Below, in pieces: positions 1-64,000 of a stretch of DNA of 64,000 bases. This stretch comes from Macrostomum lignano (lineage: Eukaryota): positions 190,777 through 254,776 of the forward strand of contig NIVC01001655.1 of assembly GCA_002269645.1 (NCBI GenBank), in the 5' to 3' direction. The notes under the pieces are model-generated. The model made no database searches, was not told the DNA's origin, and worked only from the letters and a program-made list of their open reading frames with translations. The position numbers and the translations under genes are program-made. Numbering within the stretch: position 1 is the first letter of the stretch; each line of letters begins with the position of its first letter.

Positions 1-119
1 GTCTGAAAGAGGTTTAGTAATCAATCTCACAAATATGCCACCAGCAACTGTTAACAGCATTTCGGCTGCTGCTGACCTGCAGTCCCACTCGTCATCTGTC
101 TAAGCATCGGCACCCACTG

Positions 120-1140
120 TCGCATTGTGCCAACGCTTTCCAAGTGTTTTACTTGGCATCGCCAACTACCAGACCGTTTCTGCTACAAAGAAGGGGGCCA
201 TTCAGACCTTCGTCAAAGGTCTGGGTTGCCCGGACCAAAACAATGTTAAGATCCGATATTTGTTGAAGACCTTCCGGCACGGAGCCCATAGGCGAAACCC
301 GAGCAGCGGACGCTAGTACGAACAAGATGGGTTCGCCACGCGCGCCGAGGATCGCCACAGAATTATCAAGAGAATAAAAGATCAAAATCAAAACCTCCTA
401 TCGGACACAGTCCAAAGACCATCATCATCTACGACCTTAACAGCTATCGACACAACAAGCGCGTGAAATGGAGCCCAATAAAAAAGAAAGCATTAATTGG
501 CAAGGCATGCACGATGCAGAAACAACGTTGAAAGTACGAGTAGAAATGGAGAAACGCCTTGAAATGATATAAGGGGCAACAATCAGCTCAAACATCCCAT
601 CGTCGAGGCAAGACCTGCAGTCGATCATAACCGAAAGTGCAAGAAAGATTTGCGGCACACGGAGAAAACAAGATGGGAAAGCCAACAATAAAATTGCAAT
701 GAGCCAACCGAGAACACGAAGCCCTCTAAGGAAAGCGCCGATTGCGACAGAGATCGACGACGACCACAGACGGCGACATACCCATGCGAGTACCCAGACT
801 GTGGCAAGATCTGCCGGAAAACTTTTAGACAGGAGGCTACGATGATCGGAGCGAGACAGAGGTGAACATCCAACAATGTGCAGTGCGTCAAATGCGACGC
901 TCTGGTGTAGAGTTCAAATCTGGCGCGGCACAGAAGAGCTAGCTTGTCAGGGGACGGCGGCAGGGGAAGAAGTCAGGCCGTGTAGACAGTGGCTAGGAAG
1001 TATCGCGCAGCAACAGCAACGTGCGAGGACTGCGGACGGGTGCCGTCCAAGACAAACATGGCCTGTCCAGACATCGGAGGACATGTCGAGGCGAGTGATG
1101 ACTACAGGTGTCGAATGCCCTATGGCACATAGAAGATGAC
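120..1140 (+). mobile_element. Degenerate non-LTR retrotransposon remnant (endonuclease/linker-like part plus C-terminal zinc-finger-like motifs)
   Basis: Broken frames give LQSIITESARKICGTRRK (resembles the EN-RT linker), YPCEYPDCGKIC (~780-810), VQCVKCDALV*SSNLARHRR (~880-935) and TCEDCGRV...HGLSRHRRTC (~1020-1090). Many stops and frameshifts; no RT core seen. Confidence 0.35.
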
Positions 1141-1424
1141 TGAAGAAAAGCGGGATGCCAGAGAAGAGAATCTCTGATTGAGTAAACTAAGTTTCTGGTA
1201 TGAAAATACAATATGGAAAAAATTAGACTTGATCATGGAAATTAAGTACGAGTGCAACTTCACTATACCAGGCTGTTTGTTTGTTTTTTGACACTGTTTT
1301 TTTCTAAAATCAACCCAACACACAAGGGTCACAATCACAGTCTTTTCATCTGATGACGGTCACATTGACGATCGACCGTTTTTTGACAGAAACTTTAATC
1401 TCATCAATCCAATCTTTATTTGGA

Positions 1425-2130
1425 TTAGGGATAATCTTATCTGAAATTGGGATTAGCGATAATCCTACCTGATTAGCGATAATCCTATCTGGATTTGGGA
1501 TTAGCGATAATTCTACCTGTATTTGGGATTAGCGATAATCCTATCTGGATTTGGGATTAGCGATAATCCTACCTGTATTTGGATTAGGGATAACCTTTTC
1601 TGAAATTGGGATTAGCGATAATCCTACCTGTATTGGGATTAGCGATAATCCTTTCTGGATTTGGGATTAGCGATAATTCTACCTGTATTTGGGATCATAC
1701 ATGCGCAACAGTCGGCCGAGTCGGCCGATCGGGCCGACCGATTTGGCGGCCAACCAAGGAAGTCGCAAAAATGCCCACCCGAAAAAACACCAAGTAGTAG
1801 TACTAAGTAGCTGACGAGGCATTTTGGCTTTATAAGACTGTTATAGTTACTCCTGCCGTTTACCCAAAGTTGCGTTAATTTTGCTTTCGGGTTTTTTACA
1901 TGTAAGTCGCATTTTTGGCCAAAAACTACGTCGCATTTTTGTTAAAACTAAGTCGCACGGCCGACCGAATTTTGGAGGTTGCGCATGTATGTTTGGGATT
2001 AGCGATAATCCAACCTGTATTTGGGATTAGCGATAATCCAACCTGTATTTGGGATTAGCGATAATCCTACCTGTATTTGGGATTAGCGATAATCCTATCT
2101 GGATTTTGGATTAGGGATAATCCTATCCCT
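1425..2130. repeat. ~28-bp minisatellite (GGGATTAGCGATAATCCTACCTGTATTT)n, interrupted by a MITE
   Basis: Tandem copies at ~1445-1695 and 1992-2130. Confidence 0.95.
1696..1991. mobile_element. 296-bp MITE with 14-bp TIR and 8-bp TSD (hAT-like)
   Basis: CATACATGCGCAAC at 1696; its exact reverse complement GTTGCGCATGTATG ends at 1991. TTTGGGAT is duplicated at 1688-1695 and 1992-1999. Confidence 0.85.
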
Positions 2131-15885: not shown

Positions 15886-17718
15886 CTACGAGTGCCAGGC
15901 TCGAAAGCAGTCAGGGATGCACAAGCTGGGCTGACCCGGGCACTGCTGACAGACGAAGACGGTACGTTTGGTGATGCCATTGCGATAGCAGACTCTGCAG
16001 TGACGTGCAGGCCGCTGGTTACCAGGTGTGGCAGGCAGCTTACTGGGCAAGTGAACAGCATCGGCAACAGGACGCGATGGGTGGTCGCACCGTCTTTTTC
16101 CAGGCCCTGAGCTGTCTATCAGGGCAACGATCAGTTGTTCCATGAACTTCAGAAAAGTCAGTGAGCCGCCGGAGTGCCGGAACAAAATCCAGGCATTGTG
16201 CGACAGCTGCAACAGAAAATAAACTCCGAGCCAGGGACTACTCAAACACCGGGACGGGAAACTAGGAATTTTTTACGAGGCTGGTCTTTTATCAGCAGTA
16301 GAAAATAACCATAGACAACAAAGTAACACAGCATCTCTCTAATGCAAATAATTGCCAGCCAGCCTCGTAAAAAATTTTAGTTTCCCGTCCCGGTGTTTGA
16401 GTAGTCCCTGCTCCGAGCTTCTGGTGCCAGCGGTACATTTTTCTGCTTGGGTGGTCGGGCTGCAGCGCAGAGTCAAGGCGATCGACACCACCCATGGACT
16501 TGGAGTAGTCCGTCACAGTCACCGGCTTTCGAACGACCTCCATTTGTCCACCTCGTCTGTACCGTTGTCGCGCAGAGCTCTGGGCCGTACCGAAGGTGTC
16601 AAGCAGGTAGACTGTCTTAATACCGCTTGCTTTTCTGTCTGTCAGCTTCACTGCCAAAACATCACCGCTTCGCATGTAGCAGTAGTGGGATGAAGGCACT
16701 GCTGGCATCTGCCGGAGCTCAACTGGAATGCCGCGGTCACAGCGAATGGTGCCTGTTAGTAAGGTATTGTGAGCTAGTAGAAACTCGACCAGTCGTCGGG
16801 AGGAGAAATAACTGTCAACAAACACCCTGTAGCCAAAATTTAGCAGGTCCTTTGACAGCTCCACCACTATTCGCTCGCTGACGGACAGGTTGCAGTCGAC
16901 GAATTTGCTGCCAAACTGCTGTTTTCCTCAGCTGTCTAATTAACGAGGACGTTTCATAAGTAACCGGTCTTAGAGTCACAAAGACAATAGGTCTTAATTC
17001 CATATCTAGCCCGCTTGCTGGGTATATTCTGTTTGAACGCTAGTCGTCCTTTGTGCTGAACAAGCTCCTCGTCAACAGCGATGTCCCTGTCAGGCTGAAA
17101 ATTCTGCTGACAAACTTCCTTTACTGAGTTCAAGAACGGGCGGATTTTGCGAAGCGGATCGTCATTATCACCAACGCGACAGTCGTAGAACCTCAGAAAA
17201 GATAAGATTTGCTGGAACCGGTTTCGAGACAGGCAGTTTTCACTCAGGAACAACTGGTTGTCATAAAACTTACCAGTGGCCCAGTTTATCTCTGGCTTGC
17301 GCACGATTCCCATGTAAAATATTATTGCGATGGTCTTTCTTATCTCATCATCTGCACAGTCTCTCCAATCGGTCAATCTCGGTGGCAGCTGCTGGTCATC
17401 CTCTTCGTTTCTCAAAGATTCGCAGCTCCTCCCATGCGCGAGCATTGGTGAATTCTTTCAAATGACTAATCATGTCCTTCGTGAATAAGTTGAAAAAGAG
17501 TAACGGCTCATTAGCTGGTGCCTGAACGCCAGGATTCCTACCGTGGACCCGAGATTAATCGAGATGTCATCTTCTCCGTCGTTGACAATTGTCCATTCGT
17601 TTTCCTCATCCTAAATCTCCAAAGTTGGCTCCTCATTTACTTCAATAACTGAGTCCTGATCTGACTCAGTCGATGAGCTGTTAGACTCGTCGCTTGTAAG
17701 AAGTTGATGAAGACTCAT
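15886..17718 (-). pseudogene. piggyBac (PGBD4-like, DDE_Tnp_1_7) transposase pseudogene
   Basis: Acidic N-terminus from ATG 17718; LSRNRFQQILSFLRF; IAVDEELV..KGRLAFKQNIPSKRARYGIK; VFVDSYFSS; GGVDRLD; C-terminal CRVC...CQQC...LC...CF..WH cysteine-rich domain. Contains stops, frameshifts and a MITE insertion. Confidence 0.92.
16232..16410. mobile_element. 179-bp hAT-type MITE inserted in the piggyBac ORF
   Basis: TIRs of ~53 bp, CAGGGACTACTCAAACACCGGG...CCCGGTGTTTGAGTAGTCCCTG. 8-bp TSD CTCCGAGC (16224-16231, 16411-16418). Removing the element and one TSD restores RWHQKLGVYFLLQLSHNAW in frame. Confidence 0.92.
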
Positions 17719-24020: not shown

Positions 24021-24624
24021 TACAACACAGAGCCCGGAATTTTCGACATTGACGCCCGGACTTTTCTCACATTATGACAATATTATAAACATTAATTACT
24101 TTTGCTATATAATGTTATATTCTACATGTAAATCCACTGAATATTATAGACACTGAGTGTTCTAAAGACACGGAATATTCTATAGACACTGAATATTCTA
24201 AAAATATGAACAAATTCTTCGCAATTTGTAATAAGATCGAAGTACGAAGCATATGTAATTAAGATCCTAAATTTCAATATCAAGGAGGTTTAATAAAATT
24301 GAAGAAATAATTTCATTCCAAATTTACATTAAAAATTTGAATTTACTTGACGTACATGTAGCTATTTCTTAAAAAGCAGTGGTTTGGGCAACTTACTGCA
24401 GAAACAAATGGATGAGGTTACAAGAAAAATTTAACGATTTTTGTGTGTGAGAGAGAGAGAGAGAGAGCAATATTTGGTGGGGTGATTGCAGCGGCCGGGG
24501 CGGGGCGCCACCGTGTAAAAAAAATAGAAAACTTTTTTGTCTCGCCAATTCTTTTTGCTTGGGTTTTCCAGGATTTTTCAGCATAGTGTCCTTTCACATC
24601 ATCCGGCCATTGTCCGTGCACTGC

Positions 24625-32733
<8,109 letters not shown>

Positions 32734-47183: not shown

Positions 47184-48237
47184 AAGCCATTTTTGGTATG
47201 CTTTACCTTTCGCTTTTTATGATGTTAAGAGAAAAACATTATTTTCAAAATTTTGCGATAAATTTGATGTTTAATATACTAGTGCTAAAGTTATTTTTTA
47301 TAGTCGCCACTTCATTATTACAACTTCATCATGTTATCCTTGCGTAGAAAGCTTAATTGAGCTGCATTTTGCTTAATAAGAAATTTTTTGCTTTTCTAAA
47401 AAGTCACTGCATTCTTTTACTAAACATTGCCTTGTAACTTTCAAGCAACTTATGAAACTTTCAACTTTGTGAATTTTTGAAACGAAAGGGCTTCTATTTG
47501 TTTTGAAATGCATGTTTTGAAGTACAGCTAATACAGCCTAGGGTGTGTGTGTGCGTTTGAGTTTCTTTTACGTTTTCCGAATCGTAATTCTTGTTATTTA
47601 TTTATAGCTCGAAGCTTAATAGAAAAAAATATTGCAATAATTACAGGGCTGTGGGGGGGGGCAGCGCTGATGGCGATCCTGCCCAACTTCCGCTGACTCC
47701 TGTGCACATGCACAATGTGAGAATCGATTGGTCTTTTAAAACTTTGCTTGTCTGCTTGTCCTTTATAGTCTATGGCTCAAAGACTAGGCTGGACGCAGCT
47801 AGGCCCTTCGTATTCAGCGTAGGCAGGATTCTCACTTTGGATGGCTTTTTATCACTTTGCTTGTCCTTTATTGTCTATGGCCCATAGACTAAGGCTGCAC
47901 GCAGCCAGGCCCTTCGCAGTCAGCGTAGGCAGGATTCTCACTTTGGATGGCTTTATTCTCAGTTAGGCTGACAAAACCAATAGTTTTATATTGATATTAT
48001 AAACCGATATTAATAGATGCGTACGCTCCGTTAAGCAGACACCAGACTCCTAGGATTTGGTGATATCTAATTGTGTAAAATTTAAATTTATCGCCATCAT
48101 CAAGCACATTGTTGAGTGAAAAAAAATGCAGTTTGGATAAATTCAATTCAATTACAAAAGAAAAATATTTGGGTCAATTTGACTTTCAGAAATTTTCACT
48201 GACCCTCTTACAGACGTGTTGGCAGCATCCAGAGAAT

Positions 48238-49383
48238 ATGGATTACAAAGAAATTTTAATCCGCCTGTTCAATCTTAACATTGATAACAATGAGTCCACA
48301 GACAGCATCGAAGAGGTTGGCGGCGAGATGACGGGAGACACCGGATTCCTCAGCTTCAGGCGAAGGCTCAAGATTAAGAAAGGTGATTCGATGAAGCGCG
48401 TTTTTCTTAAATTTAACGATACAAGCCGAACAGACCTCGGTGACCTGAAGCAGCTCAGTGAGGTGGCCAATGCTCGCGAGTGCCTGTTCTACGGCACCTT
48501 CGCACCCTTGCTGGAGCGGACTGCCTCTCAGATGGGCTTGGGAAGCGTCGGCCTGCCCACCGTCCACCTGGAGATGGTGCTGCCCACAGGAACTCTCATT
48601 GTGATGGAGGATCTCGGCGAGGCTGGCTTCGAGCTGGCTCCAGCTAAAATGAACGTCGCTGAAGCTCGCTGCGTGCTGAGCAGTCTGGCTCGAGTCCAGG
48701 CAGCGTTCTTGCTGACGAAAGCTCGACTGGGCAGTCCGGCTTCGGGTCTGTTCGGACCGCAGTCGCCTCTGTCCGGCGGTTTCAAATCGACTGATGTTGC
48801 TGGTTTCGACTTTGCCGAAATGCTGCCTGGCTGCTTTGAAGCGTTTGTTCGCGAGTTTCCAAAGTATTTGAAGTGCGAGAAGCGTGTGGCCGCAATTAAT
48901 TCGTACCTTAATGACGACTTTGTTGCTAAAGCTCAGAGGTACATGAAGACGAATGTGACAGAGAAGGAGGGGATCGGGGTGACACACTGCGATCTTTGGT
49001 ACAACAACTGCATGCTGAGTAGGGACTCTAGCGGGCATCCGGTGGCGTGTCGCATTATTGACTGGCAAGTTTTTGGCATCGGCTCCCTAGCTCACGATTT
49101 CGGGCTGCTGTGGCTGTCGAGTATCGATAACTCCATCGTTATTGAGCAGTTTTTTCCATTCGTGAAATATTATTATGACACTATCCGGCGGTTTTTTGGC
49201 GACTCAAGTGTTCAAGTCGACGAGTTTCCGGTCTCTCTAGAGCGAATGAAACAGCTAGCCGTCGAGTCGGTGCTGGATGCCATCATCATGACTGTTGTAT
49301 CGGTTGAAATTCTGCCTGCAATTGCCAAACCAGACAACTGGCTAGCAAATATGGCTGACTTGATCCAGTGCTTCAAGTTATAA
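48238..49383 (+). CDS. EcKinase/choline-kinase-like small-molecule kinase, copy 1 (381 aa, intronless)
   Basis: RECLFY; IVMEDL; LSSLARVQA; Brenner motif THCDLWYNNCM; IIDWQ; DFG.L.LSS. Confidence 0.85.
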   Translation: MDYKEILIRLFNLNIDNNESTDSIEEVGGEMTGDTGFLSFRRRLKIKKGDSMKRVFLKFNDTSRTDLGDLKQLSEVANARECLFYGTFAPLLERTASQMGLGSVGLPTVHLEMVLPTGTLIVMEDLGEAGFELAPAKMNVAEARCVLSSLARVQAAFLLTKARLGSPASGLFGPQSPLSGGFKSTDVAGFDFAEMLPGCFEAFVREFPKYLKCEKRVAAINSYLNDDFVAKAQRYMKTNVTEKEGIGVTHCDLWYNNCMLSRDSSGHPVACRIIDWQVFGIGSLAHDFGLLWLSSIDNSIVIEQFFPFVKYYYDTIRRFFGDSSVQVDEFPVSLERMKQLAVESVLDAIIMTVVSVEILPAIAKPDNWLANMADLIQCFKL

Positions 49384-50588
49384 TTAGCTGGATTTCTTGT
49401 CGTAACTTTATAAAGTCTTCTATATGAGTAGCTAATCTGGTGAAATGAATTAAAAGAAAAACTTGATTTAGCTATTCAATTTCTTTTAGATTTTTAGATT
49501 GTATTTTAAACACACTGTGATTCTTGTGTGTATTGTCAGCGTTTTTTCTACTGTTTTAACGACTAACCGAAATTTACGCCCTTTCACACTTTTTTACGGT
49601 ATGGAACGATGTGCCATGAACAATTCCCCAAGAGTGAATAAGCGGGGACTTGTGAGGGTCCTAGCTATTGACTGTATTTAGTGTTTACTGTCGGTAGGTA
49701 TAGTAAAGGTTTTTGTTTTATTCTTTAATATTGCATAGCTAGTCTTTCTTTTTTACTTCATAAAATTCTTGGCTTCATTTCATCCCATAGCAGTCTGCGA
49801 AGGTGTAACTTTGACAAGGACCTTGACAAGTCCAAAGATCCTTGGACTTTCATTGCTGTAGTCTTTTAACTATAGACCAAAAATTTTAACTGTCTGGAAC
49901 TAAAGCCGCGGAATTTCACATAATCGTGCCTAGTGGTGTGGCTCGGCGCTCTGATGTGCCAGCGGCTCGATTTCAAGTGCAGTCACATTAATATTGAAGC
50001 TAAATATTGGAATCTCGGCTTGGCTCTGCTCGGGAAATTAACGCCCTTGAGGGCCAACCTCAATGGCACAGTGAAGTGTACATGCCTAACGATAAAATAA
50101 AGTTAGGGCCGCTGTACACTCCTGTGCGTGTGCCTGTCCGGAATCGGCAGTAATCGCCAGTTGTGTTGTTGACAATGTCGCTTAAAGTACATGTGCGCCA
50201 GGGTGCATGCAGCCCCTGCTTGTCGGTACTGATTCTGCGTCTGTGCATGTTTTTTAGTATTTAGTTCCTTAAATATCCTTGTTTAGTTTGATTTGAATTA
50301 TGAATCAATATTGTTGGCTTGATAGTTTGTGAAAATGATTTTTCATTGATATCTAAACGAGTACGTAAAACAAACAGCAGATCAGAGCTCATCACGTGGC
50401 TTCTGAAAGCATATCTTGCAAAAGTTGTCAACAAAGCAGAGAGAGACAAAAATTTTGGTCCCTAAAGTCAAACAAAATGTATACTTCACCATTAACATAC
50501 TCAAGTGCTCATAAACTTGCTCTTCTTATTTTTCAGTGTGTTCAGAAAACAGCTTATGGGATTTTCTATTCAATTAGAACTGAACTAA

Positions 50589-51722
50589 ATGGATTTTAAA
50601 TCGATATTGACACGACTTTTCAACCTCGGATATGATGGATTAGAAGACAGCATCGAAGAAATTGGCGGTGAGATGACTGGAGACACCGGATTCCTCAGCT
50701 TCAGGCGCCGACTGAAGATTAAAAAGGGTGATGCGGTCAGAAAGGTTTTTCTCAAATTCAGTGACAAAAGCCGACCAGATCTTGGCCAACTGAAAGAGCT
50801 CAGTGAGCAGGTGAACGAACGAGAGTGCCTGTTCTACGGCACCTTCGCACCCTTGCTGGAGCGGACTGCCTCTCAGTTGGGCTTGGGAAGCATCGGCCTG
50901 CCTACCGTCCACCTGGAGATGGTGCTGCCTACAGGAACTCTCATTGTGATGGAGGATCTCGGCGAGGCTGGCTTCGAGCTGGCTCCAGCTAAAATGAACG
51001 TTGCTGAAGCTCGCTGCGTGTTGAGCAGTCTGGCTCGAGTTCAGGCGGCGTTCTGGCTGACGAAAGCTCGACTGGGCAGTCCGGCTTCGGGTCTGTTCGG
51101 TCCTCAATCGCCTCTGTCGGACGGTTTCAGATCGACTGATGCTGCTGGTGTTGGCTTTGATGGCATGTTGTCAGGCTGCTTTGAAAGATTTCGTAGCAAT
51201 TTTCCAACGTACCTGAAGTGCGAGAAGCGTGTTGCTATCATTAATGCTTACCTTGACGACAGCTTTCTTGAAAAATCTCGGGAAGTCATGAACTCTAGCA
51301 AAAGTGAGCAAGAAACCATAGGTGTTACTCACTCTGAGCTGTGATACAACAATTTTATGATCAGCAGGGACTCCTGTGGGAATCCAGTCCAATGCTGTCT
51401 CATCGACTGGCAGTTCTTCGGCATCGGCTGGCTGACCTACGACCTGGGCCCGCTCTGGATATCCAGCATTGACAATGCCATCGTCACGGAAGAGTTTCTG
51501 CCTTGCGTGGACTTTTATCATCACGCTGTCCAGTCCGCTTACGAGGGCGCGATAGGGGAGAAGTTCCCAGTCTCCCAGGAGCAGATGAGGGAGCAGGCTG
51601 TGAAGTCGTTGGTCTACGGCGTCGCTTGGATTGTCCTTCAGGCGGATTTTCTCGGCGTGTTCGTGCGTATCGACAATATTCTGGCTAATGTTGCTGACCT
51701 AATTGCTTTCTTCAAGCTGTGA
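50589..51722 (+). pseudogene. EcKinase-like copy 2 with an in-frame TGA in the catalytic loop
   Basis: 1134-nt colinear paralog. It reads HSEL*YNNFM (TGA at 51342-51344) where the others have H(C/S)DLWYNNCM. Confidence 0.82.
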
Positions 51723-53064
51723 CGTAACACTGAGTTACGTTAGGACACGTGACTTTGTAAATAATTTTTATGATTACAATTTATCGCTCTTCAATTTGCA
51801 ATTGTTCCAATCCGCTTTTAATCTTGTAGTTGCTACTTTAAAGTACTGATTTAATTTGATTTTGGTTGTCACTCTTTGTAGAATTTTGTCATGGTCTTAA
51901 ATGCTTCATTTTTAATACGTTGCATTGCGATATACATATGTCACGATTATTGACGTAGTGGCTATGGCTATGACCCTTAAAAGGGCCGTTTTGACGAGAG
52001 TTGCCGTAAGTCGTAGTCCCAAAATGAATCGAAGTCAATTCTTATAAAGCGGATTGTGTAGCGGAGCACTTGGCGATAAAGGCAGGAAACTGCCGTGGTT
52101 GTTTATTGTCGAGATCAATATTAAAACTCGGTTACTAATGTCAATGCAAGCTTATAGCGTTCTGGGCACTGGCGGCTGCAACAATGGTTTTGAAAGCAAT
52201 AGAATATGAAGTCAGTGGCAGACGAAGGATTCGATGGCGACGCAGTGTGATGAGCAATGGCGATGAGCACGGTGAAGGCAGTGAGTAGCAGTAGGTAGGC
52301 AGATGAGTAGTGGCGAGATTGGCGTTAGCCGTGGCAGCACACAGTGAAGTAGTGTGTAAACAGGCTGGCCCAGACAGAGGGGCCGTGGCGAGAGATAAGG
52401 AGGCTCGAGGCAGCCAGACAAGAGAAGGAAAACAAGACGCCAAGAGGAGAGACAAGCCTAAAAGCCTAGAAGCCTAGAAGCCTAGAAGCCTAGAAGTGAG
52501 GAGGCCCTCAGACCGCCAGGCAGGGGTTGATAAAGGAACGCAGAGGGGGGTAGCGCGAAGCACGAGCGGTTTTCATTGGCTGGCTAAAGAACTTAAAATT
52601 ATCGATCGTGCCAGTTTTCTACGGTCGCATGAAAGGATAGCAAAACGCGCAGTGAATTAGCAATAGGCACAGATTCGTTGGGCACTACTACAAGTAAACG
52701 TTAAAATAAACGATTGGAGAAATTGTAGAGGAGCTACAGTCCAACGGCCCCTCTCGGGACCACTTTAAACTGGCAACGTCACAACATACAATATGTAGAA
52801 TCCTATTATTACTGTTATTATTAGTTGGTCGTTCGCATCGATTTATGCCTTTGTAGCGAAATTAGCTTGCCCGATGAAACGGTAAACAGGCCAAGAAGCG
52901 TCCCAGAGTCACTTGCGTAGCCACATAAAGGATCGTTACTGGTAAAATTGGTAAAATAGGAAAGAAGTGACTCTAGACGACTCTGGAACGACGAGAGGTC
53001 ACGGTAAAAGTCGCCCAAAAATCGTTGAAACTTGAGGTGTTTTTATTGTCTTCGGCTCTGAAGC

Positions 53065-53777
53065 GTGTTGGCCTGGTGGTCAACACGCAGAAGACCGTCG
53101 TGCTATGCGTGCCGGACGACACCGAGGCTACAATCTTCTGCCGAGGCGCTGACGGACAGGCGAGTGAGCTTCCAAGATGTCAGCAGTTCGTCTACCTCGG
53201 CGGTCTGGTTCCCGACGTCCGCGAGGATCTGCGGCGTCGCCGTGGACTTGCTTGGGCTGCCTTTCGTTCTATAAGGTCAGTCCTGCAGTCCGAGGCCCTA
53301 CCGGACCGCCAGAGGGCGGCGCTGTTCCAGGCGGTGATCGAGACCGTCCTGTTATACAACGCCGAGACCTGGACGCTGACAGACTCGCTCGAGGCTCAAG
53401 TCGACGCGGCGCACGCTGGCCTGCTGCGCGCCGCCTTCAAGATCGGCAACGAGCGAGTCACCAACACGGCGCTCTATCATCGCGCCGGCCTGGCCCGTCC
53501 TAGCGATCTGCTGCGCCGTCGGCAACTCCAGCTAGCAGGCCACGTCATCCGCGCCGAGGCCTACTGTCCGGAGCCGGTGCAGGAGGTGCTGCTACTTACG
53601 TTGCAGGCACCCTACCGGCGGGGACAGGCGAGGACTCGGCGCTACGTCGACTGTCTGCTGGCTGACGCCGGCGCCCCGAACTCTGCCGGCGGTGCGGCTT
53701 TTGTTCGCGCCCAAGCTTTGAAGCGCGCCATCTGACGCTGCTTTTGTGAACTGGCAGCGTACTCTGTTGTTGTTGTT
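53065..53777 (+). mobile_element. 5'-truncated RTE-like LINE with (TTG)n tail
   Basis: GLVVNTQKT, FVYLG, ETVLLYNAETWTL, RRQLQLAGHV.R (RT domains 6-7 and C-terminus). Tail TGTTGTTGTTGTT. Candidate 10-bp TSD GCTCTGAAGC at 53055-53064 and 53778-53787. Confidence 0.88.
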
Positions 53778-54510
53778 GCTCTGAAGCTAATCTGAGCAAA
53801 CGCAAGTGACTCTGAGGCGCTTCTTCTAGATTGGCTCTGGGGCCGCAGAGTCGTATCTGAGGCGTGCTATCGAGTCGCTTTAGAATTACTGAGTTGCGTC
53901 TAAATTACATCCGCGTTACTTTATAAATGAATTAGAATCGTTTTATTTAGAGTAGCACAACTCTATTCAGTCTACTTGAGTTAGTGGATAGTTAAGCACA
54001 AGCACAACGACTCTTGGATGACTTTCTTTCGACTCTTTTACAGTTTTATACAACTCCCATGATGCGCTCGTGACTCAAAAGTTACCCAAAAGTCGTTAGT
54101 CACTGTACGGTAACGGTACAATAACGTTTTTAACGGGTTGATATTTTGCCAAATCATGCTCACTAGCTAAGACTCACGTAGAGAAGCTCTGAACGCCCTT
54201 TGACGACCGAAACCATAACCTTAGCTATAGGATTTTCGCAGCTCGAGTATACTTTAACTTCGACTGCAGATACATGCAGACACGACCAAGTCTTTGCCTG
54301 GCTGTTTGCCCTGTGTGGCTCGAATCAATATCAAAGTTTTTCTTATCTCAGCCTATATTTGTATTTTTACTTGTGCTTCGAGCGCGGCACAGCCGATCTA
54401 CTAGCTAGTAACAACGACAAGGGTTCAAACTTCGAAGTTTTTCGTTAAAAAACGAGCTAAAGCAGTGTACACGACAGACCAGAAAACTCTGCAATTCGAG
54501 AACTGACAAG

Positions 54511-55644
54511 ATGGACTTCAAACCTATTTTGCAGCGACTGTTCAACTTGGCACAGAATGAAACACACAGCAGTATTGAAGAAGTTGGCGAAGAGATGACT
54601 GGTGAAACGGGGTTCCTCAGCTTCAGGCGCAAGCTCAGGATCAAAAAAGGATACTCAACAATCAACATCTTTCTCAAGTTCAGCGACACCAGCCGGCAGG
54701 AGCTCGGAGAGTTGAAAGAATTCAGCGATCATTTTTGTCCGCGAGAGTGCCTGTTCTACGGCACCTTCGCACCCTTGCTGGAGCGGACTGCCTCTCAGCT
54801 GGGCTTGGGAAGCGTCGGCCTGCCCACCGTCCACCTGGAGATGGTGCTGCCCACAGGAACTCTCATTGTGATGGAGGATCTCGGCGAGGCTGGCTTCGAG
54901 CTGGCTCCAGCCACAATGAACGTTGCTGAAGCTCGCTGCGTGTTGAGCAGTCTGGCTCGAGTCCAGGCGGCGTTCTGGCTGACGAAAGCTCGACTGGGCA
55001 GTCCGGCTTCGGGTCTGTTCGGTCCGGAGTCGCCTTTTAGCGACCCTTTGAAATCCCTTACTGGCACTGCTGTCAACTTTGACGCCTTCCTCGAACAGGG
55101 CTTTGAAGAGTTCCGTCACAAGTTTGACAATTATCTAAAATGCGAGAAGCGAGCAGCCATTGTCAATGCCTACTTAGAGGATGGATTTCTCGAGAAAACT
55201 CGAAAGGTCTTGAAAGTAAATCAGGAGAAGAGCGAAGTCGTAGGCGTGATTCACTGTGACTTGTGGTACAATAACTGCATGATCAGCAGGGACTCCCGAG
55301 GTCAGCCAATTGAGTGTCGTCTCATCGACTGGCAGTTCTTCGGCATCGGCTGGCTGACCTACGACCTGGGCCCGCTCTGGATATCCAGCATTGACAATGC
55401 CATCGTCACGCAAGAGTTCCTGCCTTGCGTGGACTTTTATCATCACGCTGTCCAGTCCGCGTACGAGAGCGCGATAGGGGAGAAGTTCCCAGTCTCCCAG
55501 GAGCAGATGAGGCAACAGGCTGTGCAGTCGTTGGTCTACGGCATCGGTTGGGTCATACTGTCTGCGGATACGCTGTGGGCGTTCCAGTCGGTTAGCAACG
55601 TGCTTGCCAACATAGCCGACGTGATCGAACACTTCAAGCTCTGA
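54511..55644 (+). CDS. EcKinase-like copy 3 (377 aa, intronless)
   Basis: IHCDLWYNNCM and LIDWQ intact. Confidence 0.87.
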   Translation: MDFKPILQRLFNLAQNETHSSIEEVGEEMTGETGFLSFRRKLRIKKGYSTINIFLKFSDTSRQELGELKEFSDHFCPRECLFYGTFAPLLERTASQLGLGSVGLPTVHLEMVLPTGTLIVMEDLGEAGFELAPATMNVAEARCVLSSLARVQAAFWLTKARLGSPASGLFGPESPFSDPLKSLTGTAVNFDAFLEQGFEEFRHKFDNYLKCEKRAAIVNAYLEDGFLEKTRKVLKVNQEKSEVVGVIHCDLWYNNCMISRDSRGQPIECRLIDWQFFGIGWLTYDLGPLWISSIDNAIVTQEFLPCVDFYHHAVQSAYESAIGEKFPVSQEQMRQQAVQSLVYGIGWVILSADTLWAFQSVSNVLANIADVIEHFKL

Positions 55645-56239
55645 TGTCTGCGTCATGTTAACCGGCTTCGATAAGTTAAAACTTTATTAAAATCTAAAAT
55701 TAGATCTTTATTTTCTATGTTAGCTTAAGTTACAGTTAGAAGTTGTAATTGAATCACAAGCGATTCGAAATGAGCATGCGACAAAGTTTCCTATGACATT
55801 TTTCCATACGAGCGTACTTTTGACTAAAAGAGCGCCAATTTTATTTATTCATTTACGCGTTTTAGGCTATCTATGAATAAAACAAATAAAAGAAAAGAAA
55901 AAACAAAGCCTCATGTTTTGATTTAATGAGCTTTTTCCAGTGGTAATTAAAACATTTTCTAAGTTGCTTCCAAATGTTTTATTGATTTTCACGACCAGAT
56001 AATTTTGATTTTGTCAGTTAAGTTGATCATGGCTTTACTTTTTATGGGGCCAGGGGTTGTAGCTTATAGATGGTTAGAGCGTCGTGGGTAGAAGTAAATA
56101 ACTAGAAGAGACGGGACTATGATATTGCTCATGTAATTCTATTTTCTAGTTTTTCGTTTCTGCTGCTAAAAGAAGCAATAGGAGCTTCCTGCTCAAGCGC
56201 AGGGATGCTGACTAACGACTGAGCACAGTCGATCGCGAT

Positions 56240-57373
56240 CTACAGACCGAAATGCTCAATCAAATCAGCGACATTGTTGAGTACATTGTCAATCCGACGA
56301 AGCACTGGAATCATCTCGGCGAACGTGACCAGCCAGGTGATGCCCCAGTTGAGCGACTGGACAGCCTGCTGCCTTATCGTCTCCTTGGAGACCGGGAACT
56401 CTTGCTGCAGCCCCGTCTTGTACAGAGATCGAATGGTCTCGTCGTACAACTCCACACACGGCAGGTATTGCTCCACGGCGATGGCGTTGTCAATGCTGGA
56501 TATCCAGAACGGCCCCAGGTCGAAGGTCAGCCGACCAATTCCGAACACCTGCCAGTCGATCAGGCGGCACTCGACAGGCTGTCCGCTGGCGTCTCTGCTG
56601 AGCATGCAGTTGTTGTACCACAGGTCCGAGTGCGTTATGCCCACTACTTCACGCTCCTCTTGGCCCGACTTGATCACCTGCTGAGCCTTCTTAAGATAGT
56701 CCCTATCCAGGTAGCCGTTGATGATGGCTATTCGCTTGTCGCACGTCATGTACTTTGCGAATTCGCGGCGGAACAACTCGAAACCGGCCGGTAGGAGCTC
56801 GTCCATGCTCTTCTTGGTTGCGGACAGGGCAAAGAAACCGTCGGACAGAGGCGACTGCGGTCCGAACAGACCCGAAGCCGGACTGCCCAGTCGAGCTTTC
56901 GTCAGCCAGAACGCCGCCTGAACTCGAGCCAGACTGCTAAGCACGCAGCGAGCTTCAGCAACGTTCATTGTGGCTGGAGCCAGCTCGAAGCCAGCCTCGC
57001 CGAGATCCTCCATCACAATGAGAGTTCCTGTAGGCAGCACCATCTCCAGGTGGACTGTGGGCAGGCCGATGCTTCCCAAGCCCAGCTGAGAGGCAGTCCG
57101 CTCCAGCAAGGGTGCGAAGGTGCCGTAGAACAAGCACTCTCTCGGACAGAAGCAGTCCATCAATTCCTTCAGCTCGCCCGAGTCCTGTCGGGTTGTGTCG
57201 CTGAACTTGAGAAACACATTGATGGTTGAGTCGCCCTTCTTAACCTTGAGCCGGCGCCGGTAGCTGAGGAACCCAGTTTCTCCCGTCATCTCCTCGCCCG
57301 CCGACGCGATGCACCGGTCGGCCTCGTCCTCAGTCAGGCTGAACAGTCGAGACAAAATCGCCCTAAAGTCCAT
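56240..57373 (-). CDS. EcKinase-like copy 4 (377 aa from MDF; alternative ATG at 57391), inverted
   Basis: THSDLWYNNCM and LIDWQ intact; convergent with copy 3. Confidence 0.87.
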   Translation of the reverse strand: MDFRAILSRLFSLTEDEADRCIASAGEEMTGETGFLSYRRRLKVKKGDSTINVFLKFSDTTRQDSGELKELMDCFCPRECLFYGTFAPLLERTASQLGLGSIGLPTVHLEMVLPTGTLIVMEDLGEAGFELAPATMNVAEARCVLSSLARVQAAFWLTKARLGSPASGLFGPQSPLSDGFFALSATKKSMDELLPAGFELFRREFAKYMTCDKRIAIINGYLDRDYLKKAQQVIKSGQEEREVVGITHSDLWYNNCMLSRDASGQPVECRLIDWQVFGIGRLTFDLGPFWISSIDNAIAVEQYLPCVELYDETIRSLYKTGLQQEFPVSKETIRQQAVQSLNWGITWLVTFAEMIPVLRRIDNVLNNVADLIEHFGL

Positions 57374-58519
57374 TTGTCCGTTTGTTTCCATTTTTTCCTT
57401 TCCTTTCACGCAGTTTTATTCACGGTAGAACTGCCTATATAGACAGCAGGGTTTTGCGAAGTGTTTGTACACTGAGTGTTTTTCTCTCCCAGGGTAGAGC
57501 GACCGAGTGCAGAGTTTACCCAGAAACTGTCTGTCACACCCCAGCTAAAAGTTTGGCCGTCATTTTGATAGCAAAGGGTAGAGAATAAATTGGGGTTGAG
57601 CGGCAGGAGAGTACATTCATTATTGAGAGTGCACTCGGATAAGATCTCTAACCCCCATACCAATGAACTGCGAGCTGCATGTACGAGTAAGATGTTTGTT
57701 GTTAAACGAGGGTCCTAGTGGGCTGGCCAAACCACTGAGAATAGTGGGGTGGGTCCTTAGAGTTTATGTGCTACTAACAGTAGCGCTATATGGACTTTCG
57801 TTCAATTCCTACAAAGACGGTCTAGTTTTTTATAATTTAACCATTATCTATCTCGTACTAGCTATCTCAACTACATTCAGCTATCTCAACTACATTTAGC
57901 TCCCTTAGTGGCTCCTCCCTTGAGGTGCAAATGTACCTCCATGGCCCGCTCCCACCATGACCCTTCCATCGGTTTTCGATTTCGCTATGACCTTCAATCT
58001 ATTAAAATCTTTATTTCGCAAATTTTTAGTCAGCCCAAGTACACAGCAGCCTTCAGTCCAGGACTACCAAGTGCTGCTGTGTGGTTAAAAAATTGCGTGA
58101 ACCGAAAAAGTTAAAAGTGAGTGCATTGCAACACGAACACTCCAGCCTCTCAGCTACATCAGCTTTAGTGCTGCTGCTATATAGCGTTTTAGTGTTTCGC
58201 TTCTTTTCCTCGAAAGAAGGACGAGAAAATGTTGAACGAAGCGTTGCACTTCAGGGTTCGTCAGCTGTTGCTGCAATTAAGTTTTTAATATTCGGGGATT
58301 TCTCGAGCGTTCGAAACATTTTCCCCGGAGATGTCCGCAGGGGGAAGTTCGAAATGAATAAGCCGAGGAAAAGTTCAAGTGCTGGGGCAGAGGTCAGTTC
58401 TAACGAGGGGAAATGCTCACGACTCGACTTTGAATAATCGCGTCCTTATTGTAACAAAATCTGTTCTATTATTTGAGTTTACGAATGTTAAATATTTCTA
58501 TATTAATTTCCCAAGATTT

Positions 58520-59970
58520 GCATAGAATTCTCTTGATCTGCATAGATTCTCTAGATCTGCAAAGGTTTCTATAGATCTGCATAAAAGTCTCTAGATCTGA
58601 ATAGATTTCCCTAGATCTGCATGGGTTTCTATAGATCTGCATAGGTTTCTCTAGATCTGCATAGATTCTCTAGATCTGCGTAGGTTTCTCTAGATCTGCA
58701 TAGATTCTCTAGATCTGCATAGATTCTCAAGATCTGCATAGATTCTCTAGATCTGCATAGATTTCTCTAGATCTGCATAGATTCTCTAGATCTGTGTAGG
58801 TTTTTCTATGCATAGATTCTCTAGATCTGTGTAGGTTTCTATGCATAGATTCTCTAGATCTGCATAGATTCTCAAGATCTGCATAGATTTCTCTAGATCT
58901 GCATAGATTTCTCTAGATCTGCAAAGGTTTCTATAGATCTGCAAAGGTTTCTATAGATCTGCATAGAAGTCTCTAGATCTGAATAGATTTCCCTAAATCT
59001 GCATGGGTTTCTATAGATCTACATAGGTTTCTCTAGATCTGCATAGATTTCTCTAGATCTGCATAGATTCTCTAGATCTGTGTAGGTTTCTCTAGATCTG
59101 CATAGGTTTCTCTAGATCTGCATAGATTTCTCTAGATCTGCATAGATTCTCTAGATCTGCATAGATTTCTTTAGATCTGCAAAGGTTTCTATAGATCTGC
59201 ATAGAAGTCTCTAGATCTGAATAGATTTCCCTAAATCTGCATGGCTTTCTATAGATCTACATAGGTTTCTCTAGATCTGCATAGATTTCTCTAGATCTGC
59301 ATAGATTCTCTAGATCTGTGTAGGTTTCTCTAGATCTGCATAGGTTTCTCTAGATCTGCATAGATTTCTCTAGATCTGCATAGATTCTCTAGATCTGCAT
59401 AGATTTCTTTAGATCTGCAAAGGTTTCTATAGATCTGCATAGAAGTCTCTAGATCTGAATAGATTTCCCTAGATCTGCATGGGTTTCTATAGATCTGCAT
59501 AGGTTTCTCTAGATCTGCATAGATTCTCTAGATCTGCGTAGGTTTCTCTAGATCTGCATAGATTTCTCTAGATCTGCAAAGGTTTCTATAGATCTGCATA
59601 GGTTTCTCTAGATCTGCATAGATTTCCCTAGATCTGCATGGGTTTCTATAGATCTGCATAGGTTTCTCTAGATCTGCATAGATTCTCTAGATCTGCGTAG
59701 GTTTCTCTAGATCTGCATAGATTTCTCTAGATCTGCAAATGTTTCTATAGATCTGCATAGGTTTCTCTAGATCTGCATAGATTTCTCTAGATCTGCAAAG
59801 GTTTCTATAGATCTGCATAGGTTTCTCTAGATCTGCATAGATTTCTCTAGATCTGCAAAGGTTTCTATAGATCTGCATAGAAGTCTCTAGATCTGAATAG
59901 ATTTCCCTAGATCTGCATAGATTTCTATAGATCTGCATAGGTTTCTCTAGATCTCCACAGATTTCTAGCT
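58520..59970. repeat. ~20-bp satellite (ATAGATTTCTCTAGATCTGC)n with 238-bp higher-order repeat
   Basis: About 70 monomers. The rare variant GAAGTCTC recurs at ~58966, 59204 and 59442. Confidence 0.93.
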
Positions 59971-60644
59971 GCATTGATCTGTTATGGATTTCTCAGTCAT
60001 CGGCTGTCTTGCAGCTAAAACATATTCTTATACCAATGGAATCTGTCTAGTGTGTGACATATGGCGTTTTTTATCCCTTAAGTGACTCTAGTCTAGATGT
60101 GTATCGAGACTGTGGGGGGTCTGAGTGATCCCCTAGCCATATAAAACACTCTCCCAAGAAACCGATAAACTGACTGCCATGCAATGAGATAAAAAGCTCT
60201 CTGACTGCACTGAGCTGCCAGCGAACTGGCAACGGACCATGGCGATACACGCGGATTTCCACACTTTACACAGCAACTTAAAGACAAGGAGTTGCCCTGC
60301 TGCGATGCAATATATAGCCCATGGTTTACACGCCGGCTCTGCGGCTGCGGACTGAGGCTGAAGACAGAACGGCCAACCGCTTTATGATGGAGAAAGTGCT
60401 GGAAGCTGCCCACTCCCCCCCCCAAGTTTCTGGCCCGTGTAGCCGACCGAAAATCAATTGAGGCCGGGATCGATTTAATGCGGGGCGACGAGGCGCGGGA
60501 CGGATAGGGGAGACCGCGGCTGCTGCTGGCGAGGGCTGGGAGAACCCGGCCAGAATCCATAATTTCAATCACTGGGCTCTGTTTTTGCTGCGACGCTCAG
60601 GCCTTTTAAAATGGCATTTTTAGCGCTTTGAACCTGCGATCGGC

Positions 60645-60646
<2 letters not shown>

Positions 60647-60690
<44 letters not shown>
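60647..60690. repeat. (CTAT)n microsatellite
   Basis: About 11 units directly before the AGTAGA putative terminus. Confidence 0.95.
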
Positions 60691-61159
60691 AGTAGAAGGC
60701 ATGAGGGGGCTTCTGGGACAAAATTTTTCACTTCCTCCATAATCCACCTAAATCCATCCATATAATCCCTGACAGAATCAGAAAAAAAGGGGGGTCGCAC
60801 CCGCTCACAAAACCTCCTCCATAATCCACCTAAATCCATCCATATTATCCCTGACAGAATCTTGAAAAAGGGGAGGGGTCGCACTTGCTCCGAAAACTTC
60901 GAACATAATCCTATTAAATCCATCCATATTATCCCTGACAGAATCAGAGCATAACCGGTGTCCTAATGTTATGCTCTGAGGGTTTATGCTCTAAGCATAA
61001 AAGCTCCAAATCCACCCATAGCATGTTCGAAACAATCAGAAAATAATCTGCATTCTTCTCCCCACATTCAATCCGAAGCGGCGAAACCAGATCCCCAAGA
61101 CTTTAAATCATCAGCGCAGGGTCCTCACCCTTTGAAAAAAATTAAATTCTCAATAAAAA

Positions 61160-61450
61160 ATGTTTCCAGTTGTCTCTCCAGGTTCTTATTATACTCAGCC
61201 CCATCCATTGTACAAATCCAAGTACCGATGCAAACTAGAATGCAGCGAGTACATGAGAAAATATTGGCCTGACGTTGATATCAATGGCCCTAATATTAAT
61301 CAAGCACTTAAATCTCACTGGTTTGAAAAACACGGAGTAGTCATTAACGATTATGACAGCTACTATAACTTTGCTGAAGTTATAAGGCAATTGAAGTGGC
61401 CAACTATAAGGTTGTACCTGGTGGCTTATATCGTAATTTTACAAGTCTGA
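61160..61450 (+). CDS. Small 96-aa ORF of unknown function in the Polinton-like element
   Basis: ATG in A-rich context (AATAAAAAATG); ends 7 bp from the convergent minor capsid stop; Tyr/Trp/His-rich. Confidence 0.5.
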   Translation: MFPVVSPGSYYTQPHPLYKSKYRCKLECSEYMRKYWPDVDINGPNINQALKSHWFEKHGVVINDYDSYYNFAEVIRQLKWPTIRLYLVAYIVILQV

Positions 61451-61457
61451 AGACGAC

Positions 61458-62315
61458 TCACATTCTCTCTATAACAATTGTTAGCACAAACTCTTCCCCG
61501 TTAAAATCGACACCAACTCCATCCTCTGTTTCAAACTGCAGAACGATTTCATGTATCTCTCTATTACTCAGAATCACTCTTTTCACGGGGTTTGGCTTTT
61601 GCACAAGCATTTTGCCACCAGCAACAGAGTTTGAAATGTTAAAAAGTATGTTGGTTCGTTTGCCTTTGAATATCCAATCATGGCTCAGATTGCTACGAAT
61701 TAATATATTCAAACCTTTGACAATGTCAGCGATATTTGGCGCCAAGTACATACCGGATATTAGCCGGGACACAGCAACAGTGCCAGGCGCCTGCAGCGGG
61801 CTTTGGTCTGTGGCGCCACCATAAACTCTCTTTTCAAATCCCAACTCGCGATACCAAGTGCCATCTTTAAACTCTACCTCTGCGTCCTTATGAACTTGCA
61901 AGATAACTCTCATGACAGTTAGATCATAAGTTAATCTAACAGGGAACAGTTTATTTTCTGGTTTGCTTTCATCCGGTATCTCAAAATGCTTTCGTTTAGT
62001 GAAGACGTTCTCCAAGAAGTAATTATAAGTATCCACGCTCTGTGTGCTGACAGGAAATATCACAACCTCTGTTGTAGTACGCTTCCATTTGTAATAAAAC
62101 TTGTTATTTTCCGCTGTCACATTGGGAACATTTGACCACCCAGTGAAATCATTGAGATAGACGTGGTAATTCGCCTCGGGATCCAAACGAAGTGGTTGCT
62201 CCAATTTTTGAATGAAGATTCCGTTTGACTCAGTAATGCGACCCGCTACAGTGATTGGAATGCTCTCCTTAGAGTGTGAAACAATGTTGTTTAGTCTTTC
62301 GGCTATGGCTTCCAT
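61458..62315 (-). CDS. Minor capsid protein (penton-like, single jelly roll), 285 aa
   Basis: PLRLD...YHVYLNDFTGWSNVPNVTAENNKFYY and C-terminal EIVLQFETEDGVGVDFNGEEFVLTIVI match the Polinton/adintovirus penton pattern. Lies immediately downstream of the major capsid. Confidence 0.78.
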   Translation of the reverse strand: MEAIAERLNNIVSHSKESIPITVAGRITESNGIFIQKLEQPLRLDPEANYHVYLNDFTGWSNVPNVTAENNKFYYKWKRTTTEVVIFPVSTQSVDTYNYFLENVFTKRKHFEIPDESKPENKLFPVRLTYDLTVMRVILQVHKDAEVEFKDGTWYRELGFEKRVYGGATDQSPLQAPGTVAVSRLISGMYLAPNIADIVKGLNILIRSNLSHDWIFKGKRTNILFNISNSVAGGKMLVQKPNPVKRVILSNREIHEIVLQFETEDGVGVDFNGEEFVLTIVIERM

Positions 62316-62337
62316 TTTTTTATTGAAAAAAAATTAT

Positions 62338-63634
62338 TCAAACTTTACTAGACGAGTTATTGATCATATTGACCTTGATCTTCCTCTCAAATGCATAGAT
62401 AATAAACAGATCAACAGCCGTTGCGGCACCAAATTCTTTCCGCTCGATATTAGTCACAATGTTAACAGGGCTATTGTCTGTAGGCATTTGTCTAGCAGTC
62501 ACATCAACACCAAATATTGGATATAGTTTTTTTATACTGCAAGGTTGTCAAAACAATACCGTTATTCTCTTTGACAGCCAGGTCCGACAGTTCATTGTAA
62601 AACTTACTAATCTTGTTCTCCGAGAAATTCCCATTTTGTGGCAATGCAGGGTATAAATTGTCACTGATCTCATGTTGAATCGATCGAATGTTTCCATGTA
62701 GATATCTACCTACATTAGTTGTATTCCTCATAGTGACAATAATGTACCTTGGATTGCTACAGGAGCCTTCTTTAATGCAAATATTGTGTCTTGCGTCATT
62801 CCGCTCATCTCTGCACATATAAGCTGTATAAGCAACATCAATGTCTTTCTCAATCGCCTTCAAGTATTCAGCTTTGAGTGCAGTCTTGGGCTCAATAATT
62901 TCTAAGTACAGCTCCACGCTAGTTAGCTTAATCTCCATCGATGTATGATTGGCCCCCGACCAAATTCCTCTGTTCCGATCATCTCTAGTCAGTCTAAATG
63001 TGTAGCTAAAGTTGCTTGTCAACCGATTGAAACTATTACAGAAACCACTCATAAACCTCAAAGGTACAAAAATATCTACAGACCTAAACAGCGGATTCTT
63101 AGCAGCATCGTTCTCACCAACAAGAGCATAGTTGTATCTCTCCTTTCTCTTTTTGTAACCAGGGTCATTCTCATCTCCTGTCTGTTCATTGGGGATGAAT
63201 CCAGCACCGCTCCCCATCTGAATAAAATCCGGGTTCTCAATCAAGCACTGGGTATCATAGACCACACCAAAGTTTGCTATTCTTTCCAATTCTGTACTTC
63301 CATTGGACACATTAAACTCTTTGAACATATAAGCCCAGAAATTACTGGTTAGTGCGACATCCGCATTGTGTAGATCATCATTAGCATGAGCGGCGTCTGC
63401 GCCTCCTTTAGTTTTGAATTGATACGTCATATAGAAGCCGCTCCTTAGACTGTGCACACTAACCAAATACGAACATCCATTGTATGTAAATGTCAGTGTT
63501 TGACCAGGACCAAGATTAGTTTCATTCTGATTTTCCTGACTGGGAACTCTTACCTGAGTCGCTTTGATTGTGCTATCATCACTCAAAATAGGCTTGTTAA
63601 TTTTGTAGAAAACTGGTGTCAGTGGGTCGTTCAT
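62338..63634 (-). CDS. Major capsid protein (double jelly roll), ~431 aa after correcting a 1-nt homopolymer frameshift
   Basis: ORF 63634-62504 has PILSDDSTIK, GQTLTF, VPLRFMSGFC, FRLTRD, PRYIIV, LYP. Dropping one A from the A7 run (62527-62533) continues YKKLYPIFGVDVTAR...IYAFERKIKV to TGA at 62338. Confidence 0.8.
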
Positions 63635-63664
63635 TTTTTAACTAAAAATAAAATAAAATAAGAA

Positions 63665-64000
63665 ATGAAGCGAAAAAGTACACAGCAGATATCTGAATTG
63701 GAGAAGCTAGCACAAGCAGAGAAACGAGTTACCGGGCTAATAAATAAGGAGCAACAATCCTACAATGAATTCGTCCAAGCAGCCACCGAATTTCACAAAC
63801 CCGGATACACAGAAGCGAAGAAAAACCTCGACACTGTGAAGGAAGCAGTTGATGATATTCAAGAGAGCCACTTGCAAAACACATTGGGTAAAATCCCATC
63901 TTCACCGGGACAACCACAGGCTCAGCAACCAGGACAACCAGTGCAGATGAATGTGAAGGATAACTTTTTGGCCCCGTATTGGATGATGGAAAATATATTT
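63665..64000 (+). CDS. Unknown ORF divergent from the major capsid, open to the window end (at least 112 aa)
   Basis: MKRKSTQQISELEKLAQAEKRV...PGQPQAQQPGQPVQMNVKDNFLAPYW...; no stop codon; ATG 30 bp from the capsid ATG. Missing from the ORF track because it is truncated. Confidence 0.65.
   Translation, partial: MKRKSTQQISELEKLAQAEKRVTGLINKEQQSYNEFVQAATEFHKPGYTEAKKNLDTVKEAVDDIQESHLQNTLGKIPSSPGQPQAQQPGQPVQMNVKDNFLAPYWMMENIF

Follow-up and report, generated by a model that had tools for sequence, protein, structure and literature searches.

A probable Maverick/Polinton element with a divergent capsid gene in the flatworm Macrostomum lignano

Introduction

Mavericks, Polintons and adintoviruses are regarded as one group of animal elements within the Polintoviricetes, and their names are treated as synonymous (10.64898/2026.06.19.733378; PMC7805220; PMC8502044). 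The Gosseviruses, a protist branch, are described as a third group of the Polintoviricetes (10.64898/2026.06.19.733378). Insertions of Orthopolintovirales have been reported in Rhabditophora, with neither species nor sequence named in the text (10.1101/2025.04.19.649669, Fig. 5e). In this study we describe the right edge of a 64,000-nucleotide stretch of Macrostomum lignano DNA (assembly GCA_002269645.1, contig NIVC01001655.1, positions 190,777 to 254,776 of the forward strand), which is referred to in full as the window. The sequence from window position 60,691 onwards very probably belongs to a single copy, and represents its left end, of a Maverick/Polinton (Polintoviricetes) family that has amplified recently and is integrated in the M. 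lignano genome.

The vertebrate Mavericks are present in a mean of 22 and a median of 8 copies, and their ends are (AGT)2 and (AG)3 (PMC8097293). Adintoviruses in the narrow sense possess a PolB that bears an OTU-like domain at its N-terminus and an rve integrase with a chromodomain, and their hexon is defined by its recognisability in reciprocal BLASTp with the Alpha and Beta references (PMC11071296). The locus described here shares with animal Mavericks/Polintons a double-jelly-roll capsid protein of the family PF21738, an adjacent penton gene, packed intronless genes, an end starting with AG and integration at a modest copy number. It differs from them in its capsid, which lies at the margin of PF21738 and, eight close relatives apart, shows about 19–28% identity to all others, and in its end, AGTAGA. 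The capsid module is located beside the end and is transcribed towards it, whereas the modules of vertebrate Mavericks point to the centre. The Rhabditophora insertions belong to the same viral order and come from the same host class; they may or may not represent the family found in the window.

Results and Discussion

Capsid Genes

Two capsid genes form a module beside the presumed terminus, as the original prediction had proposed (Table 1). The first of them is a 376-aa open reading frame (ORF) that matches PF21738 with 29.4 bits against a Pfam cut-off of 27. The best match in a protein-cluster atlas was a PF21738 cluster (score 0.97), with a recognition below the threshold of the tool. A search of 1,761 candidates gave eight relatives, of which seven show 66–76% and one shows 45% identity. 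The structure of the protein was modelled from a nine-sequence alignment. When this low-confidence model was compared by VIA-align, all of the ten best rows were viral capsid or scaffold entries, led by the major capsid protein (MCP) of faustovirus (Z 9.6, root-mean-square deviation 5.2, 257 aligned). Further matches were two chains of Paramecium bursaria chlorella virus 1 (PBCV-1; Z 9.4 and 8.8), p72 of African swine fever virus (ASFV; 8.3), the mavirus MCP (8.2) and Sputnik (8.1). The matches in BFVD were largely major capsids too, and a sequence search of the PDB returned nothing meaningful (one match, E 0.59). Family match and modelled fold identify the product as a double-jelly-roll MCP of the kind that characterizes the Polintoviricetes, with a frame that is broken near 62,530 in the window copy.

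The break became apparent from a comparison with the full-length close homologs, which are 422–438 aa long. Up to about residue 368, the window ORF agrees with them. The last approximately 60 homolog residues match a different frame at 62,338–62,547, with 68–75% identity to five close homologs and 33% to a sixth. This places the break near 62,530, in a homopolymer run. All spanning contigs, in four of four sequencing runs, carry an indel relative to the window at this site, and one of them, 728 nt in length, shows zero substitutions otherwise. The interruption is therefore more likely to have arisen by a slip in the assembly, or to be private to the window copy, than to be a trait of the family, although contigs drop rare variants. 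The element had also been called near-intact. This description goes beyond what 3.3 kb can show, and the MCP frame is broken as assembled.

For the neighbouring 285-aa ORF, 608 candidates included 12 relatives with 54–64% identity. It has no Pfam match, and its search against the cluster atlas led to unnamed clusters only. The structure model of its product, again of low confidence, matches the minor capsid protein of Klosneuvirus (E 1.3e-9), the penton of MELD virus (1.5e-7) and the minor capsid protein of mavirus (1.4e-6), and also proteins of adomaviruses. In the comparison with the PDB, the first seven rows were viral capsid-type chains, among them the mavirus penton (Z 6.9), and one row only exceeded Z 8. 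An adenovirus-derived domain was matched by residues 65–196 (Z 6.4), which agrees with the domain insertion known from the pentons of adintoviruses (PMC11071296). Profile and structure searches thus led to capsid folds for both proteins, and to PF21738 for the MCP, in agreement with the double-jelly-roll MCP and the penton originally predicted. The modelled fold identifies the product as a single-jelly-roll penton close to the MCP, as is typical of the Polintoviricetes; a penton gene adjoining the MCP gene is the norm in Polintons (PMC4028283).

The virophages mavirus and Sputnik resemble the element in their capsid folds (Z 8.1–8.2) and penton folds (Z 6.3–6.9). Unlike them, the element encodes an MCP of the sequence family PF21738, which is its only Pfam match, and the virophage fold matches tie with those of giant-virus capsids. 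Mavirus integrates by means of an rve integrase.

Table 1. Features of the left end of the element and of its junction with the host sequence (window positions).
Feature	Position	Strand	Basis
(CTAT)n microsatellite, host side of element junction	60647..60690	.	letters of the window
AGTAGA, presumed element terminus	60691..60696	+	directly behind (CTAT)n tract; depth step supports
High-copy end segment, probably a terminal inverted repeat and/or a stretch common to further subfamilies	60691..61309	.	contig depth
Subterminal direct repeats, three copies of ~80 nt and a degenerate fourth	60700..61046	+	repeat comparison, shuffles
Small ORF, 96 aa	61160..61450	+	ORF listing; no Pfam match above cut-off
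Penton (minor capsid protein) of single-jelly-roll type with inserted domain, 285 aa	61458..62315	-	homologs, predicted-structure matches
Double-jelly-roll major capsid protein of PF21738	62338..63634	-	376-aa ORF 62,504-63,634 and tail in another frame 62,338-62,547
Fourth ORF (ORF4), runs past window end	63665..64000	+	ORF listing; no Pfam match above cut-off

Capsid Phylogeny and Related Loci

A profile search of 1.84 billion representative proteins yielded 453 matches, the best 150 of which were listed. The search matches and the query made up 157 proteins, and the 93 of them with a length of 370–520 aa were used for a FastTree phylogeny. The window MCP is placed in a nine-member clade with a support of 100. 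This clade joins an 18-member clade (mostly 470–510 aa, about 21–28% identity) and one long-branch row with a support of 99. The core PF21738 proteins, which score 128–233 bits, stand further off in the tree and show about 22–24% identity where compared. Judged by its sequence, the capsid forms a divergent branch of its own within the PF21738 family. Of the claim that the element may define a new lineage, the divergent capsid clade has been retained, inside the known PF21738 family and in a tree that carries no named reference sequence. For the latter reason the tree is unable to assign the element to group 1 or group 2. No relative was found in scans of viral contigs, either with the MCP and penton alignments or with four further protein queries, and a first metagenome scan likewise gave none.

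The MCPs of three metagenomic loci, L001–L003, belong to the sister clade. Locus L001, whose MCP is 25% identical to that of the window, encodes an rve integrase (2.1e-13), a DUF5679 protein, the MCP and a Pox_A32 ATPase (5e-9), and its predicted products thus correspond to the gene content of a Polinton. No polymerase or protease was detected on its 8.8 kb. The element differs from L001–L003 in its gene order, and no tblastn match to its penton, small ORF or ORF4 was obtained in the three loci. A further observation concerns the integrase gene of L001. It is located within an open ORF of more than 900 aa (2–2713, minus strand), in which the rve integrase occupies residues 562–647 behind a long N-terminal part. 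The latter has no Pfam match and presumably resembles the phospholipase A2 region of viruses, as judged by eye. This ORF could be a fusion or the result of a frame slip.

The divergence of the capsid has to be considered together with another possible origin of the element, namely a protist-associated polinton-like virus (PLV) of the Polintoviricetes, similar to Gossevirus/VC35, or another PLV, that has integrated in the worm and possesses an integrase or replicase unlike those of canonical Mavericks. Such an origin would fit the scores of the capsid on PF21738, which reach only 29–51 bits against the 128–233 bits of core members, and the provenance of its relatives (8 close and 16 further ones), which stem from ENA, JGI/IMG, MetaClust and Logan assemblies without informative names. 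The description of the Gosseviruses as a third group (10.64898/2026.06.19.733378) counts in its favour as well. However, the element is young and multi-copy in an animal genome, its end starts with AG, and the sister locus L001 carries an rve integrase. We therefore regard the PLV origin as improbable and prefer the assignment to the animal Mavericks/Polintons.

Terminus and Boundary

The sequence of the element begins with AGTAGA, as had been predicted, directly behind the (CTAT)n tract. The hexamer alone is weak evidence, because it occurs 14 times on the plus strand of the window. Independently of it, the boundary can be placed at about 60,637–60,770 by a steep step up in contig depth from the bin 60,500–60,634 to the bin 60,770–60,904, which was seen in four of the four runs mapped. 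The junction between host and element is bridged by no run contig, since the reads are cut at the microsatellite (60,637–60,696). Polinton insertion generates a target-site duplication of 5–8 bp. A 6-bp target duplication, if present, would be located at the end of the microsatellite at 60,647–60,690 that the element abuts.

The predicted subterminal repeats were likewise recovered. The distances between the three copies are 82 and 84 nt, corresponding to a unit of about 83 nt, and the fourth copy is weaker. A 27-nt core is present twice in the window and was absent from 100 shuffles. No other match to the element was found when the 64-kb window was compared with it. The inverted partner of the approximately 600-bp terminal segment was not seen within the window, inside which only one element end lies.

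The summed contig depth at 61,175–61,309 is about 12–33 times that at 61,445–61,579 in four runs, a ratio inflated by contig fragmentation. Terminal inverted repeats (TIRs) of Polintons range from 100 to 1,500 bp (PMC10748475). A TIR is expected to double the depth, and the larger excess suggests that ends far outnumber capsid modules. The simplest reading is that extra subfamilies or non-autonomous derivatives share this end.

Copy Number, Age and Variation

At least half of the words of the element are contained in 20 of 24 listed runs, which come from eight studies of 2015–2024 under one organism label. The single-contig depth of the capsid region exceeds that of the flank 13.8–15.6-fold, 10.6–13.2-fold and 10.7–16.9-fold in three runs of three studies; a fourth run has almost no flank cover and hence gave no ratio. 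The depth of the 5′ part of the MCP gene and of ORF4 is higher still than that of the rest of the capsid region. As a rough guide, contig depth indicates roughly a dozen or more near-identical copies. In the flank, two haplotypes that differ by 18 substitutions and a 17-nt indel were observed at 60,154–60,467 in two runs, so that the flank is not a perfect reference for single-copy depth. The long contigs of four runs show 0–16 letter differences to the window over 120–920 nt, mostly below 2% (98–100% identical). Together with the depth of about 11–17 times that of the flank, this agrees with the young age claimed in the original prediction. The element is integrated, intronless and multi-copy in a eukaryotic genome, with a junction unbridged by run contigs. 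No RNA run was listed as holding the element, although runs were labelled as RNA by guesswork and expression cannot be read from contigs.

The unbridged junction within a microsatellite is what would also be seen if contaminating viral or protist DNA had been mis-joined to a host contig. Contamination is nevertheless extremely improbable, as the element recurs in 20 runs of eight studies under one organism label between 2015 and 2024, and as the ratio to the flank is similar, 11–17-fold, in three runs of three studies, as expected of a genomic repeat.

The copies of the family might also be defective, being mobilised in trans or inactive, with the extra termini representing non-autonomous derivatives and the capsid genes decaying. 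The frame break near 62,530, the indel difference near 63,965 and the far greater depth of the termini relative to the capsid region could be explained in this way. The same applies to the numbers of synonymous and non-synonymous variants, which are about equal in the penton gene (3/2), the MCP gene (3/3) and ORF4 (4/4); 26 of the best-supported 40 variant sites entered these counts, and 87 further sites lie outside them. On the other hand, all contigs over the MCP break in the four runs differ from the window, including the substitution-free 728-nt contig, and no stop-creating variant was present in the penton gene, the MCP gene or ORF4 among the variant sites listed. In addition, a synonymous share of about half is more than the approximately one quarter that we estimate, from few sites, in the absence of selection. 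A defective family appears possible but rather doubtful to us. This explanation concerns the activity of the element and is compatible with its assignment to the Polintons.

Weighing the Assignment

Several observations count against a Maverick/Polinton family. The visible 3.3 kb, which terminate with the window at 64,000, contain neither a polymerase nor an integrase, an ATPase or a protease, and show neither a right end nor a target duplication. The hexamer AGTAGA resembles the published vertebrate Maverick end motifs (AGT)2 and (AG)3 but differs from them. The MCP model has a pLDDT of 46.6 and hardly captures the second jelly roll, and the pLDDT of the penton model is 59.5, most of the penton Z-scores being below 8. 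Contig depth does not amount to a copy number in the strict sense. The gene content of L001 need not transfer to the element, because the capsids are 25% identical, the host of L001 is unknown and group 2 elements swap their replication modules (10.64898/2026.06.19.733378). The PF21738 capsid, the penton, the terminal repeats and the young multi-copy family are still in accordance with the Polinton-type element of the original prediction, and the assignment to a recently amplified Maverick/Polinton family remains very probable.

Small ORF, ORF4 and Composition

In the run contigs that cover it, the small ORF has a stop at codon 79, and its length of 96 aa may be peculiar to the window copy. 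The loose contig ends at 61,191, 61,238 and 61,305 were judged by eye to contain divergent in-frame variants of its protein. This suggests a real gene that is common to more distant subfamilies. A match of the small ORF to RNase T2 was rejected (18 bits against a cut-off of 26), as were Pfam matches of ORF4 to helical proteins, which were below the cut-off. No longer homolog of ORF4 was found among 183 candidates, a weak result with a query of 112 aa whose end may be out of frame; an indel relative to the window is present near 63,965 in three of four runs. The tightly packed, intronless ORFs described from the sequence were found again as four ORFs at their expected places, the exceptions being that the MCP ORF is not whole and that the small ORF is shorter in the run contigs. 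The GC content of the element is 40%, compared with 49% in the flank at 54–58 kb. The third-position GC is 0.40–0.45 in the four element ORFs and 0.67–0.74 in two host genes.

Proposed Life Cycle

The known features of the Polintons (PMC8097293, PMC10748475, PMC4028283) and the sister-clade locus allow a proposal for the part of the element beyond the window. It would encode an rve integrase that mediates insertion with a duplication of about 6 bp, either a polymerase B primed by protein or a replicase of the helicase type, an A32/FtsK packaging ATPase and, probably, a maturation protease. The element may copy itself through an extrachromosomal linear form, by protein-primed or helicase-driven replication from its repeated AG-start termini. 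The subterminal repeats are plausibly binding sites for replication or integration proteins at the origin. MCP trimers and vertex pentons could form an icosahedral shell, into which the linear form would be packaged by the A32 ATPase.

A T followed by two to six A residues directly precedes the ATG of three of the four element gene starts (61,160, 62,315 and 63,634) and of seven of eight L001 ORFs. Intermediate and late genes of vaccinia use TAAAT as their initiator, and yeast linear plasmids use TAAAN (PMC6211774). Compared with all ATGs the motif looks significant, but this background is unfair, as the starts of ecdysteroid-kinase-like (EcKL) host genes are A-rich too (TAAATG in one of three). 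A-rich start contexts being ordinary, also at host starts, the motif is a post-hoc lead with low odds. A term search of PMC11296320 turned up no promoter analysis. A still-active, particle-forming polintovirus with a distinct capsid lineage, which behaves like a virophage of an animal and relies for transcription on the RNA polymerase of a large flatworm DNA virus infecting alongside it, would be in keeping with such a motif; we consider this a long shot.

Host Surroundings

A cluster of EcKL (PF02958) host genes lies at 48,079–57,391 of the window. It comprises at least four long single ORFs on both strands, two of which were confirmed by Pfam. One ORF of the cluster, at 56,240–57,391, shares a 90% identity cluster with a protein named as M. 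lignano, which makes this flatworm the most likely host. Exons with a vWA-like domain and a HEWGH motif at 24,451–31,121 (minus strand) appear by eye to belong to a host gene of CLCA type; the exons are separated by long tracts of (CTAT)n and of 15-nt repeats. By eye, the fragment at 16,292–17,457 (minus strand) looks like a broken piggyBac-type transposase, and that at 52,977–53,735 (plus strand) like the C-terminus of an ORF from a non-LTR retrotransposon. A 20-nt minisatellite array of more than 40 units at 59,000–59,960 reaches into the region examined from its left side.

Conclusion

The family described here is a new, divergent member of the Mavericks/Polintons, an element class that is routine in animals and has already been reported from flatworms as a group. 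No description of a Macrostomum Polinton was found in the literature, including the supplements of PMC8502044 and PMC12801592 and PMC6431247; Repbase/Dfam and the supplements of 10.1101/2025.04.19.649669 were outside this search and may hold the family. As it stands, the finding adds a further Polinton family from a further animal. M. lignano is also the first host for a capsid clade that is otherwise known from unnamed assembly fragments. Particle formation and viral spread of integrated animal Polintons are still little tested. In 2021, an extracellular form of animal Polintons was stated to be undetected (PMC7805220). M. lignano is the only flatworm with stable transgenesis according to PMC8717057. 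With its young family and divergent capsid, this transgenic-capable worm would be a convenient place to look for Polinton particles.

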